Shown: positions 3,781 to 46,409 of the stretch, one piece after another
Numbering within the stretch: position 1 is the stretch's first letter
How the letters are laid out: each line of letters opens with the position of its first letter
IMG/VR virus record: IMGVR_UViG_3300025437_000009
Length of the DNA stretch: 64,000 nucleotides
Direction: 5' to 3' (one strand)
Source of the DNA: a virus
Lineage: Duplodnaviria > Caudoviricetes
The notes under the pieces: generated by a model
Told to the model about the DNA's origin: nothing
Databases searched by the model: none
What the model saw: the letters and a program-made list of their open reading frames with translations, nothing else
Position numbers and translations under genes: made by a program

Positions 3781-4053
3781 TTATTCTGTTGTTGTAAACT
3801 CGTTTGCGGAAACAACATCATCTACTGTTATGTTCTTAGTCTGTATGCTTCCGCTTGAATTTATCTGCTCTACTCGTAACACATGTGATCCGGGCAGTAA
3901 ATTTACTATAATATTTTCACGCACAAATACTTCGTGAGCTGACCAAATAAAATCTCGTTCAGTTAATAAATCACGGTCTACATATATGCGATATGTGGGA
4001 TTAGATTCTCCTCGACGTGCATATACATCTACGGTGATTTTATGTTCGGTCAT
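3781..4053 (-). CDS. hypothetical protein (90 aa)
   Basis: ORF overlapping the stop of the upstream gene. Confidence 0.6.
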   Translation of the reverse strand: MTEHKITVDVYARRGESNPTYRIYVDRDLLTERDFIWSAHEVFVRENIIVNLLPGSHVLRVEQINSSGSIQTKNITVDDVVSANEFTTTE

Positions 4054-43173: not shown

Positions 43174-43203
43174 TATTATAGCATATTGGCAATTATTTGT
43201 CAG
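43174..43203 (-). promoter_or_regulatory. sigma70-type promoter with AATTGCCAATAT spacer
   Basis: CTGACA-17-TATAAT. Confidence 0.6.
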
Positions 43204-43600
43204 TATGTTTGAGTGTCGCCCACATTTGCTTTTGTTCCAAAAATTTTAGTTCAAGTTCTCGGTAACGGTCAGCACAGGCCTTGAGTTCGTCAAACTCCTG
43301 CTCCAATACAGCGTTTCTTTTGATTCGTGTGGGGATCATTAGTTCGTCTCGGATGGTCTGCATGGTTTCTCGGAGACTTAGACCATCAAGTTCAATATCT
43401 TGTTCGGATATTTTGACTTTTGGTTGCTTGTCATAGTAAGGAGTTGCAGTGGTTGTCCAAATTGGGTTTGCTCCAGTTGCAGTAGTATAAACTAATCCGC
43501 TACCATTTCCTCCCGTTATGGTCACGTTACCGTAACTTGACCCGGCCAAGCCTGCAGCAGTGACCGGAATTGTAGTTTTGTATGTTGGTGTTTTGGCCAT
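43193..43600 (-). CDS. hypothetical protein (135 aa)
   Basis: ORF with AAGGA SD. Confidence 0.6.
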   Translation of the reverse strand: MAKTPTYKTTIPVTAAGLAGSSYGNVTITGGNGSGLVYTTATGANPIWTTTATPYYDKQPKVKISEQDIELDGLSLRETMQTIRDELMIPTRIKRNAVLEQEFDELKACADRYRELELKFLEQKQMWATLKHTDK

Positions 43601-43606
43601 AAAAAA

Positions 43607-43650
43607 TCCTTATACGGTTAAGTATAAGGACTTTTCATGGTGTTGTCAAT
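43607..43650 (-). promoter_or_regulatory. sigma70 promoter whose -10 box and the downstream SD form the two arms of a hairpin
   Basis: TTGACA-17-TATACT; TCCTTATAC/GTATAAGGA 9-bp inverted repeat. Confidence 0.6.
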
Positions 43651-43652
43651 CG

Positions 43653-43751
43653 TTAGCTATTCAAAACTTTTGCCACACTATTCATTACTGATGCAATACG
43701 ACCAATGTCACGCAAGTTTTCTACTGTGTAGCCTTCTTGCTTGAGTGTGTC
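43653..43751 (-). pseudogene. orphan duplicate of the ahpD 3' end (32 codons plus stop)
   Basis: translates DTLKQEGYTVENLRDIGRIASVMNSVAKVLNS*, 26/32 identical to the C-terminus of 44677..45192. Confidence 0.85.
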
Positions 43752-44602
43752 AATGAGCCTTCCGCCACACCTTGCTCTACGCTTTCTTTCACTCCGAGTT
43801 TATCAATGATATACTTGCAACTTGATGCAGAAGTATTGATGAAACCCATGAACATTGGCCTATCATCTTTCATCATTGGCATTATATTTTTAACAAAAGA
43901 TCGTGCAGTTTCTTGGGTATAATTTGGAGGAAGTCCAACATAATTGGCTAAAGCAGTCGATGCTTTGTATGATTTATTTGAATACTCCTCTAACATATTC
44001 ATAAAACCATCATCTCTCGGTTGAGTATTTTTGAATACTCCTTTTGCCATTTCAAAAGTTCCAAAGCATTCCGCAGTAATTTTTGCCATTTCTCTGTAAT
44101 CAGAATCGGCGACCGCTTGCTTAGCCGCACCTAATCCGATTGCGCCAACAGCCGCCGCACCCAAGCCTTTCAAAAATCCTCTACGGTCAATTTCATCTAA
44201 CTGTGCTTCCGCCACACCTTGCTGTCCTTGGACAGGGCTGTCTCTAAGTGCATCTCGATAAAACTCTTTGAAATCTTGTGCCAATTCTCTTGCTGACCAC
44301 GCCCAAGTTTGACTGTCCCAATCGTCTGTCATCTCAGCTTCAAGTTTAGTACTCGGGTCTCGACCACGACTAAACCCTATACGAACAGTATGTTCAATTT
44401 GTTTATTAACCAACTTTGCAAATAGTTTGCCATTGGGATTTGGATTAATTGTTACTTTATATCCGTGTTTTTCAGCAAACTGTATCGTTGGCTGTAAGAA
44501 CTGGATTTTAGGATCAACAACACCAGCTTGGGCTGGAATATCTTCCGCCACCGGAGTCTGTGCGGTTTCTATTAAGTTAATGTAATCTCTAAGTGTTTTC
44601 AT
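43721..44602 (-). CDS. modular putative capsid-targeted protein with internal Tat signal
   Basis: MKTLRDYINLIE start after TAAATA (alternative ATG at 44665); LDE-IDRRGFLKGLGAAAVGAIGLGAAKQAVA. Confidence 0.65.
   Translation of the reverse strand: MKTLRDYINLIETAQTPVAEDIPAQAGVVDPKIQFLQPTIQFAEKHGYKVTINPNPNGKLFAKLVNKQIEHTVRIGFSRGRDPSTKLEAEMTDDWDSQTWAWSARELAQDFKEFYRDALRDSPVQGQQGVAEAQLDEIDRRGFLKGLGAAAVGAIGLGAAKQAVADSDYREMAKITAECFGTFEMAKGVFKNTQPRDDGFMNMLEEYSNKSYKASTALANYVGLPPNYTQETARSFVKNIMPMMKDDRPMFMGFINTSASSCKYIIDKLGVKESVEQGVAEGSLTHSSKKATQ
43759..43776 (-). repeat. 18-bp direct repeat AGCAAGGTGTGGCGGAAG, copy 1
   Basis: identical to 44206..44223. Confidence 0.85.
44206..44223 (-). repeat. 18-bp direct repeat AGCAAGGTGTGGCGGAAG, copy 2
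   Basis: identical to 43759..43776; 10-bp core also at 44542..44551. Confidence 0.85.
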
Positions 44603-44676
44603 AATGTAGTATTTATTCCTTGTTCTTACAGTTATCGCCGTGCCAACATAAGATCGATCTCTCATAGAAATATTTA

Positions 44677-45192
44677 TCAACTATTCAACACCTTTGCTAC
44701 ACTATTCATTACTGCCGCTATTCTGCCGATGTCTCTCAACTGCTCAACAGTATACCCCATCTTTTTTAATCCATTATAATGGGCCGAGACACAGAACTTG
44801 CATTTTCCAACAATGCTTGCGGCAAGGCTATATGCCTCAAATCGTTCTTTAGTCGTACCACCGTGGGTTGTGATTGCGTTCATTCTGAGTTGAGCCGGAA
44901 GACCTTTAAGGTTAGCATCTTCTGCCATCTCTACATATGGATACCAAGTGTTGTTCATCGACATCAAAGATGCGGCAGTGAGTGCGGCATCTCGCTCTTG
45001 TGAGTTTTCCATAGAACTTTGAATAAAGGTAACTAATTTCCCGTTACCTGTGCTCATTGCGGCGGCCAGCGCACAACCTTCTGCTTCCTCAACTGCTAGA
45101 GTACTACGCTTAATAACAGCGTCCAAGTTCAACTTAGTGTCCTTGGCGTACTCAGGCAGACCTTCTTTAAGTTGATCTACCCAGGCAGTCAT
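44677..45192 (-). CDS. ahpD: alkyl hydroperoxide reductase AhpD
   Basis: YAKD.KLNL, AASLM.MNN.WY, CKFCVSAH; follows ahpC. Confidence 0.9.
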   Translation of the reverse strand: MTAWVDQLKEGLPEYAKDTKLNLDAVIKRSTLAVEEAEGCALAAAMSTGNGKLVTFIQSSMENSQERDAALTAASLMSMNNTWYPYVEMAEDANLKGLPAQLRMNAITTHGGTTKERFEAYSLAASIVGKCKFCVSAHYNGLKKMGYTVEQLRDIGRIAAVMNSVAKVLNS

Positions 45193-45731
45193 TATAAAGT
45201 CTCTCCGCCAACTGTACGGTTGCAAGCACATAGTTCGCCAGTTTGAAGTGCGTCAAGAATACGCAAAGTTTCTTCAGGGCTACGACCTACGTCCAAGTTG
45301 TTTACAGTAACGTGTTGGATTGTGTTGTCTGGATCAACAATGAATGTAGCGCGAAGTGCCGCACCAGCTGGAGCATAGAATACGCCCAACTGCTCTGCCA
45401 AGCTCAACTCACCACGCTGTGTATCAGCAAATTGGTTGTGCTTGATGTTGATCAAGTCTGGATGGCTCTTCTGCCATGCGATCTTACAGAACTCATTGTC
45501 TGTTGAACCTGTTAGCAATACTGCGTCACGGTCTTCAAAGTCTTGATTCAATTTGTCGTATGCTACGATTTCTGTAGGACATACAAATGTAAAGTCCTTA
45601 GGGTAGAATACGATTACTTTCCATTTACCTTCAAAAGAAGTTTCATCAATGTTGAAGAAAGCATCTTCTGGTTGGCCTGGCTTAACGCCTGTTACTACAA
45701 AGTGTTCTAATTTATCACCGATTGTTTTCAT
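45192..45731 (-). CDS. ahpC: peroxiredoxin AhpC
   Basis: FYPKDFTFVCPTE; GELCAC. Confidence 0.95.
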   Translation of the reverse strand: MKTIGDKLEHFVVTGVKPGQPEDAFFNIDETSFEGKWKVIVFYPKDFTFVCPTEIVAYDKLNQDFEDRDAVLLTGSTDNEFCKIAWQKSHPDLINIKHNQFADTQRGELSLAEQLGVFYAPAGAALRATFIVDPDNTIQHVTVNNLDVGRSPEETLRILDALQTGELCACNRTVGGETL

Positions 45732-45758
45732 TTTGATTTCCTTTAAGTTAATATGAAA

Positions 45759-46409
45759 TTACTTTTGTGAATTGCAGTTATAGCAAATCACTTCTAAATT
45801 GTCTTCTACGTTATTGTAGATGTCGTTGTCCCATTGTGTTACAGTTAACGGTGCTGGACGACCTTGCCATTCTGTAATACCGCAGGTTTCACATTTATGA
45901 CCACGCTTTTGGATAATATAATCTTGGATATAGTCCGGAACAGTTTTCCAGTTATATACACTACAATCGCTCATCCATTCTTCAATTCTTTTTTCACTAA
46001 GTAATTTTTTTCTATGATTTTGCTGGCACTGATTGTTACAATATTTGCTTTGATACGATCCGCCTCTTACAGGATTTTCTCTGTTACAGAATAAACAGTT
46101 GAATATAATTTGTCTAGAATTTAACATGTCAATTGCGTTATGAGATAATCCTTCTCCGCCTGGAGTTTTATTGTGTAATATTCCTGTATTGTTATTTTTT
46201 CTTCCATACTCGGCTATTAATTGTTTTTCTAAATTAAACGCTTCGTCTTCGCTTAAGTTATCTTTATAGAATACAATTCTATTTTTGTCCTCCGGTGGAT
46301 GAACACTTCTTCCATAACATCTTGTAGCTCGACCGTTGCGACCTTTGCCGATATAGTACGGAGTACCATCTTCTCTTAAATACCCGTAAACGTAAAAATC
46401 ATTAATCAT
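45759..46409 (-). mobile_element. free-standing GIY-YIG endonuclease-like gene fused to a degenerate HNH zinc domain
   Basis: FYVYGY..EDGTPYYIGKG...RA; KCETCG...NLEVICYNCNS lacking the HNH His residues. Confidence 0.6.

Follow-up and report, generated by a model that had tools for sequence, protein, structure and literature searches.

A displaced ahpD terminus as the probable footprint of an HNH homing endonuclease cassette in a lake phage

Precedents for terminus replacement and the ahpD locus

In fungal mitochondria, elements known as mORFs carry a foreign copy of the C-terminus of the gene in which they reside, as described for atp6 of Allomyces macrogynus and for atp6, atp9, cox2 and nad3 of Glomus (PMC3630166, citing Paquin et al. 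1994). In these elements, an endonuclease open reading frame (ORF) is located near the 3' end of the target gene and brings a C-terminus that replaces the native one in frame, the latter being left downstream, and the two ends differ mostly at synonymous sites, with the native end nearer to that of insert-free relatives (PMC3630166). The same features are reported here for the ahpD gene in a 64,000-nucleotide (nt) stretch of phage DNA (IMG/VR record IMGVR_UViG_3300025437_000009; the whole stretch is hereafter called the window), in which an intact ahpD gene, the relic of an HNH homing endonuclease gene (HEG), a passenger gene and a stranded second ahpD 3' end follow each other, with all genes of the region 43193-46409 lying on the minus strand. 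An in-frame replacement C-terminus upstream of an endonuclease ORF, with the native C-terminus displaced downstream, is indeed found at this locus. Unlike the mitochondrial cases, the genome is that of a lake phage of ~350 kb, the enzyme belongs to HNH_3 rather than to the LAGLIDADG or GIY-YIG families, the target is an auxiliary redox gene, and there is a slot with changing passengers, the endonuclease of the window having been cut to 53 nt. By these likenesses, mORFs appear to be the closest precedent for the anatomy of the locus.

With regard to the pattern in the population, ICP1-like phages contain HEG-islands, in which nuclease genes stand at the boundaries of exchange (Barth et al. 2023, PMC10448857). 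According to the parts of that account used here, nuclease genes bracket a conserved block whose nt identity is far above that of the rest of the genome, homology within the island serves homing and nuclease families are interchangeable, while the islands hold essential structural or replication genes and duplicated target ends are not described in those parts (PMC10448857). At the present locus, ahpCD is flanked in the window, L001 and L002 by nuclease genes that belong to three families, but in contrast to the islands an auxiliary ahpCD pair, a displaced terminus and non-homologous passengers are involved. Free-standing HEGs of phage T4, namely the seg and mob genes, are known for intronless homing, marker exclusion and co-conversion. 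They are alike in that the HEG stands beside its target gene and identity falls with distance from the HEG, whereas the T4 genes are intergenic and are accompanied neither by duplication of the target end nor by passengers. Phage HEG-islands and T4 intronless homing thus seem to be the closest precedents for the population pattern. New here is the combination of a terminus-replacing HEG in a giant phage, a changing passenger slot and several independent HEG decays; in the literature searched, neither target-terminus replacement of the fungal mitochondrial kind nor a slot with passengers that vary between genomes was found described for phages.

The features on which the argument is based are as follows.

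44677-45192, minus strand: ahpD, 171 residues, start ATG at 45192
44677-44754, minus strand: replacement terminus, the last ~25 codons and stop of the intact ahpD, 98-100% identical to L232, L239 and L308
44666-44676, minus strand: 11-nt spacer from ahpD stop to HEG start, found in L002, L003, L232 and L308, not in the HEG-less L001
44648-44665, minus strand: 5' stub of the HNH HEG relic, ATGAGAGATCGATCTTAT, encoding MRDRSY, with 0-1 mismatch to the first 18 nt of the HEGs in L002, L003 and L232
44613-44647, minus strand: 3' stub of the HNH HEG relic, the last 35 nt including the stop, 100% identical to L232:4653-4687
43721-44602, minus strand: passenger (cargo) ORF, 882 nt, 293 residues, made of a leader, module 1, module 2 and a fortuitous tail
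43653-43751, minus strand: stranded ahpD 3' remnant, codons 140-171 and stop, translating to DTLKQEGYTVENLRDIGRIASVMNSVAKVLNS and a stop

The stranded end and the HNH cassette in related phages

The start of the intact ahpD gene was corrected to ATG 45192, which overlaps the ahpC stop and gives a protein of 171 residues. The product is a member of the AhpD/CMD family (Pfam CMD, 45 bits; TIGR00778, 32.4 bits with a cut-off of 27.8) with the motif C131-K-F-C134-x3-H138, and reaches 120 bits with the full-length model TIGR00777, under its cut-off of 192.

The initial annotation of this DNA had proposed a stranded ahpD 3' end that shares 26 of 32 residues with the intact gene and differs from it largely at synonymous sites, and both parts are confirmed. 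Compared with the last 32 codons of the intact gene (44677-44775), the remnant has 9 identical codons, 17 that differ synonymously and 6 that differ non-synonymously, so that 17 of the 26 identical residues use other codons and 32 of 96 nt differ. When the remnant 32-mer was searched with tblastn against the ahpD ends of relatives, E values of 1e-9 to 1e-15 were obtained, and the similarity between remnant and ahpD is far beyond chance. Also found as described was the gene of ~0.9 kb between the two copies, an 882-nt ORF whose last 10 codons (THSSKKATQ and stop) run out of frame within the remnant.

The origin of the remnant is indicated by comparison with other phages, since insert-free relatives had been expected to end like it. 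At the nt level, the window remnant is 87% identical to the sequence of L069 and 86% to that of L033/L031, as compared to about 67-75% for the intact end in its own genome, and 30 of its 32 residues match the ahpD end of L078, while X6 and X10 lake contigs with remnant-like sequence run upstream into an intact ahpD (...KCEFCVKAHY). Relatives without the insert thus carry ahpD genes with remnant-like ends, as the initial annotation had predicted, and on alignment the displaced end is closer to insert-free alleles than to the inserted end. Every remnant compared retains an open frame and the original stop. Remnants begin at C134 in L003, L232, L239 and L308, at K136 in L002, L231 and L240, and at D140 in the window, and the start points fall inside the most conserved nt stretch of the 3' half of ahpD. 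The remnant lineage is common to the window and L308, and its VENL sequence is shared with the remnants of L002 and L231.

In related phages, an intact HNH gene is found between the two ahpD ends. The comparison covered 80 of 154 ahpD loci and 80 of 165 HEG relatives obtained with the 228-residue HNH protein of L003 as the query. In L003/L005, ahpD is followed after 11 nt by the 228-residue HNH_3 gene (36.6 bits, cut-off 24.8), and the remnant, whose first codon is that of the second Cys in CxxC, lies right after the HEG stop. The order of ahpD, HEG, slot and remnant is kept in 14 of the 14 loci with a HEG that is at least 88% identical, and eight distinct arrangements with ahpD, HNH HEG, variable slot and ahpD 3' remnant can be distinguished; more distant HEG relatives (66 compared) adjoin other genes. 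The presence of the HEG is polymorphic at this one site, as it follows ahpD in 14 loci and is absent from the other ahpD loci compared, excepting L004, whose contig ends before the HEG position. The window and L308 contain HEG relics at ahpD rather than an intact HEG. The slot after the HEG holds the following.

L003: nothing
L232-L239: a gene of 77 or 136 residues starting with MKTLRDYINLIE
L002: genes of 373 and 80 residues
L231: a DEAD-like gene of 642 residues
L240: ~180 nt

While the slot content changes, the HEG and the replacement terminus stay constant. Compared with L232, L239, L240 and L231, the ahpD of the window is 35-80% identical up to nt ~438, and from nt ~439 through the stop into the HEG the identity is 98-100% with L232 and L239 and 88-95% with L240 and L231. 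In L308, too, the replacement terminus is 98-100% identical with an ahpD body of 35-80% identity. A terminus and HEG shared on at least five ahpD backgrounds are a signature of homing. On these alignments, the last ~78 nt of ahpD travel with the HEG, and the flanks next to the HEG are far more alike than the remaining sequence, in the pattern of co-conversion. Of the earlier proposal of a HEG cassette that brings a recoded replacement terminus, the cassette and the replacement end were retained, whereas a special recoding is weakened, because the GLKKMGY version of the end is a common natural allele type and HEG status is tracked by residue 132 only. At this residue, Glu is present in all six distinct HEG-bearing sites, while distinct HEG-less sites comprise 60 with His132 and 4 with Glu132; among relic-bearing genomes, Lys132 is found in the window and His132 in L308. 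On this distribution, residue 132 and its codon may determine whether an allele is sensitive to the enzyme.

The remnant is thus very probably the footprint of a free-standing HNH homing endonuclease cassette that invaded ahpD at its CxxC codons (C131-x-F-C134). Such a cassette would consist of a replacement ahpD 3' end, the HNH gene 11 nt past the ahpD stop and a passenger slot after the HEG stop, and its insertion would leave ahpD whole and push the resident 3' end downstream. The HNH enzyme would cut cassette-free ahpD alleles near codons 133-136, and the break would be repaired from a cassette-bearing co-infecting genome, with homology provided on the left by the ahpD body and on the right by the stranded end, so that the replacement end, the HEG and the slot content would be copied together.

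Several observations weigh against this explanation. The Glu132 counts ignore shared ancestry, and L308, which has only a relic, carries His132. The cut site is placed only by the remnant starts (C134/K136), which could instead be recombination junctions. The junctions are of two types, with TAA and then (T)CTGYGT in L003, L232, L239 and L308 as opposed to ATGAGCAAAGC in L002, L231 and L240, and the window has the VENL of the ATGAGCAAAGC group but the leader of the (T)CTGYGT group; cassettes have therefore recombined, and the order of events is only partly resolved. Duplication of the terminus occurs in just 3 of the 66 distant HEG relatives and hence does not characterise the HEG family as a whole. 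From RNA, contigs were obtained for module 1 of the passenger only, which is shared by many phages, one of them coming from an L125-like locus, and therefore say nothing on expression at this locus.

Two further loci were noted during the survey. L034:2414-3784 presents a mirror image, in which a full ahpD is preceded by a SegE-like GIY-YIG/NUMOD3 gene and, before that, by an ahpD 5' stub of ~45 codons; the SegE-like gene shares a C-terminal zinc ribbon with the HNH HEG. At L266:3413-4897, a distant HEG relative (45% identical) is fused in frame to a 55-residue C-terminal duplicate of the upstream gene of 163 residues, and terminus replacement therefore recurs at another target.

Changes in the window lineage and competing explanations

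Between the ahpD stop and the passenger start, the window has the 11-nt spacer, 18 nt from the HEG start, 35 nt from the HEG end and a 10-nt spacer as in L232. Thus, 634 of the 687 nt of the HEG are gone and 53 nt are left (44613-44665). Window and L232 are 100% identical over the 85 nt that reach from the HEG 3' end to the end of the leader. As only 18 and 35 nt of the HEG ORF are left, the window holds a relic and is not counted as carrying a member of the HNH HEG family. In L308 (L308:3013-3102), the relic arose by a different internal deletion that leaves 45 nt and 24 nt in frame, and a third deletion variant, with HHIDG fused to DNCKNKE, is seen at an X10 loose end at window position 44636, with intact HEGs also present in lake contigs. 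Three different internal deletions point to repeated independent decay. Replacement of the HEG by the passenger in a single event was considered and rejected, because the HEG 3' end persists and HEG loss is therefore a separate internal deletion. It was also observed that, through the 634-nt deletion, the former HEG start codon (44665) now shares the frame of the passenger, and translation from there would add 21 residues before the leader.

The later changes can be read from L308, an ENA contig and the closest relative, with 92% nt identity upstream through ahpC, 95.5% downstream and the same backbone. Its gene order is ahpC, an extra gene of 173 residues, ahpD, HEG relic, passenger, remnant and the gene of 135 residues, and its passenger P0004 contains the leader, module 1 and a tail module with its own stop, right after which the remnant starts at C134. 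The sites concerned in the window are the following.

44738-45192, minus strand: ahpD nt 1-455, a recently converted tract, ~100% identical to L001, L002 and L003
44206-44221, minus strand: copy 1 of a 16-nt repeat, CAAGGTGTGGCGGAAG, which codes for QGVAE, at the boundary of modules 1 and 2
43759-43774, minus strand: second copy of the 16-nt repeat, closing module 2
43743-43759, minus strand: deletion junction, GGCTCATTG fused to ACACACTC, where 186 nt of L308 are missing in the window

Relative to L308, the window has module 2 (447 nt) in addition, exactly between the two copies of CAAGGTGTGGCGGAAG, and lacks 186 nt from codon 4 of the tail module to remnant codon 139, a deletion that took the passenger tail, the passenger stop and remnant codons 133-139, the first seven. 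The out-of-frame run-on of the passenger ORF, which the initial annotation had described, was produced by this later deletion rather than by the insertion. It was considered whether GGCTCATT at the junction derives from the AHY codons of the remnant by loss of 2 nt. This was rejected, since L308 shows that the sequence is the start (GSL) of the tail module that was deleted. A 16-nt patch of the remnant matches the intact end of the window itself and looks like ectopic conversion. The ahpD body differs from that of L308 as well. Its nt 1-455 show one difference from L003, located in codon 132 (AAG vs GAG), and differ at 2-4 sites from L001 and L002, whereas ahpC is only 66-90% identical at the nt level to these three and the flanks are unalignable; L001 carries the tract without a HEG and without a remnant. 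We infer that this tract stems from HEG-stimulated co-conversion or marker exclusion with a cassette-bearing donor, with one crossover region in the conserved end of ahpC and another in the terminus that they share, and that L001 is a convertant. Comparison with the relatives shows five changes in the window lineage: an internal deletion of 634 nt reduced the HEG to 18 + 35 nt; the passenger acquired module 2 via recombination at the 16-nt QGVAE-coding repeats; the 186-nt deletion took away the passenger tail and stop together with the first seven remnant codons; ahpD nt 1-455 were overwritten very recently by the conversion tract; and the short remnant patch was apparently converted from the intact end.

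The genes and elements around the cassette, on which the competing explanations partly depend, are listed below.

45759-46409, minus strand: nuclease-like gene, 216 residues, upstream of ahpC, ~92% nt identity in L308
45192-45731, minus strand: ahpC, peroxiredoxin, 179 residues, Pfam AhpC-TSA 78 bits, its stop overlapping the ahpD start
43601-43630, minus strand: hairpin TCCTTATAC-N6-GTATAAGGA followed by T6, just past the remnant and abutting the next gene start, kept in L308
43193-43600, minus strand: backbone gene, 135 residues, downstream of the cassette

According to the initial annotation, the 0.9-kb passenger with the replacement terminus would itself be mobile, with the GIY-YIG-like nuclease whose gene lies upstream of ahpC as its mobiliser in trans. 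This gene is located 27 nt upstream of ahpC and accompanies it, whole or as its C-terminal half, in 15 of 80 loci, and trans-mobilisation of defunct HEG cassettes is a known phenomenon, as with T4 mobE and I-TevIII; with its HEG dead, the cassette of the window could move only in trans. However, an HNH HEG is intact in cis at the exact position in 14 related loci, and both of its ends persist in the window; it is the passenger that varies, while the HEG and the replacement terminus are constant. Cassettes also occur without the upstream nuclease, as L003, L232 and L239 carry other genes upstream of ahpC. The nuclease itself scores under every Pfam and NCBIfam threshold: the N-terminus of the 216-residue protein is GIY-YIG-like by eye only and its C-terminus is HNH-like (PHROG HNH endonuclease matches at residues 163-215), with no match in Pfam, NCBIfam or PDB. 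Thus, nothing links this gene to the site, the passenger did not hold up as the mobilising unit, and the proposal is improbable.

An even smaller probability is assigned to site-specific insertion of the integrase type, in which the attachment site would carry the 3' end of the gene, as in islands that reside in tRNA genes. The same anatomy would result, with the copy brought by the element restoring the gene and the old end displaced to the far junction, but none of the eight arrangements encodes a recombinase, identity between the repeated ends is 67-83% without an exact shared core, and the left edge of shared identity varies, from nt ~438 (window vs L232) to nt 1 (window vs L003), which fits homologous co-conversion.

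Two same-strand ahpD 3' ends ~1 kb apart might also be taken for a tandem duplication with decay of the second copy and later insertion of an unrelated gene. Relatives with two full ahpD copies, which the initial annotation had named as evidence for such a history, were looked for and none was present among ~95 ahpD loci; each partial copy is parted from the full gene by a HEG or HEG relic, and the ends differ at 32 of 96 nt, mostly synonymously, with the remnant nearer to alleles of other phages than to its neighbour, so that duplication is contradicted by the data and has hardly any probability left. An assembly artefact, in which different strains would have been joined into one chimeric contig at the ahpD end common to them, might be read from public-run contigs that break within the repeated parts (43710-43719 and 44536-44565), but is just as improbable, because X4 contigs from another lake sample span both the junction of passenger and remnant and that of ahpD, relic and leader, the independent ENA assembly L308 has the same order and backbone, and 14 IMG/VR contigs share the architecture.

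With regard to the genomic setting of the HNH cassette, IMG/VR contains many relatives of freshwater origin, some of which are nearly complete at 343-374 kb. No useful match to the region or the passenger was found in INPHARED phage records by megablast, blastn and tblastn, the sole match being a 66% ahpC hit in a Ralstonia phage, and the phage seems to have no close relative among cultured phages. The ahpC and ahpD genes are widespread in this phage group at variable backbone positions. In L214, L219 and L220, the backbone has a metallophosphatase gene, then 0.5-0.8 kb and the gene of 135 residues, with no ahpCD between them; L218 and L051 were also compared for the backbone, and L218 has ahpCD elsewhere. 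The block of nuclease, ahpC and ahpD therefore shifts position between phages. A search for related loci with the downstream gene of 135 residues as the query revealed no relative. The gap between ahpC and ahpD measures 0.27-2 kb in 30 of the 78 loci that have both genes (L011-L073). Genes sampled there encode a class II aldolase, a GDSL-like hydrolase, TerC, a Na/H exchanger, a 2OG-Fe oxygenase and occasionally a NUMOD3 nuclease; they are mostly metabolic genes rather than HEGs, and this gap is a second variable slot. In L001 (L001:6662-7822), an ORF of 386 residues with a signal peptide and porin-like sequence is located directly downstream of ahpD.

The passenger gene and the meaning of the locus

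The passenger of the window is composed of the leader MKTLRDYINLIE with a linker to VAE (residues 1-20), module 1 (residues 21-133), module 2 (residues 134-282) and the tail GSLTHSSKKATQ; the leader comprises 12 residues ending in LIE, and the module borders read VAE. Shorter versions of it are found after the intact HEG in L232-L239 and after the relic in L308. T4 internal proteins are directed to the capsid by a 10-residue N-terminal targeting sequence, with cleavage by gp21 after Glu (PMC9026906). The passenger is alike in its 12-residue leader ending in LIE, its further VAE sites and the presence of an S77 protease in relatives, as three nearly complete ones have a Peptidase_S77 gene (T4-type prohead protease), but it is unlike them in lacking homology to IPI-III and in having shuffled modules, one with an internal Tat-like signal (Tat, twin-arginine translocation). 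The leader and module borders would fit cleavage after Glu by gp21-type proteases. By this analogy, the passenger may be a late-expressed protein that is cut by a T4-type prohead protease after LIE, VAE and QGVAE, and its designation as a capsid-targeted effector in the initial annotation is plausible; packaging, processing and export are put forward as hypotheses suggested by these motifs.

The passenger ORF is preceded by AATAAATA-N7-ATG, and the 11-nt spacer with the ahpD stop codon reads GATAAATA-N5-ATG. The motif AATAAATA (or GATAAATA) is met at gene starts at 44617, 37006, 9637, 3785 and 60943 (minus strand), plus 44672-44679, with a spacing to ATG of 5-7 nt (21 nt at 3785), seven times on the coding strand as against two on the opposite one. 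The motif is similar to the T4 late promoter TATAAATA, with hardly any leader, and at the cassette it overlaps the ahpD and HEG stop codons.

Both modules belong to a larger pool of exchangeable segments. Module 1 is 95-100% identical at the nt level to segments of large proteins elsewhere that are strings of modules separated by QGVAE, and module 2 fills the same slot of a DUF6321 protein as module 1 does in another phage. The exact 16-mer CAAGGTGTGGCGGAAG is found in >120 IMG/VR stretches, often several times per contig (L083, L125 and L082 among them). This QGVAE-coding 16-mer delimits modules that are shuffled among the small leader gene, large polyproteins and the DUF6321 protein, and a 684-residue ORF at 489-2543 of the window is a member of the large-polyprotein family.

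Module 2 opens with a Tat-like RRGFLKGLG segment, for which the Pfam model TAT_signal gives 20 bits (cut-off 22.7) at residues 138-155, a position that is not N-terminal. The junction QGVAEGSLEE(I/V)DRRGFLKG(L/M)GAAA (window 44105-44200, passenger residues 135-165) recurs in many unrelated modules of at least nine proteins.

Proteins bearing the junction: P0025, P0027, P0031, P0036, P0039, P0045, P0047, P0054, P0060

The QGVAE junction is a putative protease site placed directly before a Tat-like signal. The core of module 2 is homologous to proteins of 121 residues with ordinary Sec signals, and its AlphaFold model is a four-helix bundle with a pLDDT of 78. When this model was compared with PDB by Foldseek, nothing below E = 0.6 was obtained and the matches were generic helical bundles only (ferritins, KinB sensor). 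Searches of Pfam, PHROG, NCBIfam and PDB sequences revealed no family for the passenger modules, and a feature search of the ESM Atlas with module 1 gave no usable match.

For annotation, the cassette accounts for both the isolated piece of a gene and the ORF that runs on, and it identifies 53 nt between genes as what is left of a dead gene. A direct and cheap cleavage test is offered by the ahpD CxxC codons, with His or Glu at residue 132, as the proposed target. The locus displays a full HEG life cycle in one lake phage population: the HEG invades with a spare end and spreads to alleles that have diverged, co-conversion sweeps follow, and the enzyme has decayed independently at least three times. 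It is conceivable, though doubtful, that the HNH cassette acts as a natural gene drive with a payload bay, which spreads shuffled capsid-loaded modules that are released by the prohead protease, exported in some cases via Tat, and mobilisable in trans after HEG decay. If this is true, a gene located between HEG and remnant would be copied into every susceptible ahpD allele that is cut, and a payload with a decayed HEG, as in the window, would be movable in trans by the intact HEGs of co-infecting relatives. A changing passenger slot would make the HEG a vehicle for accessory genes and not a pure parasite.

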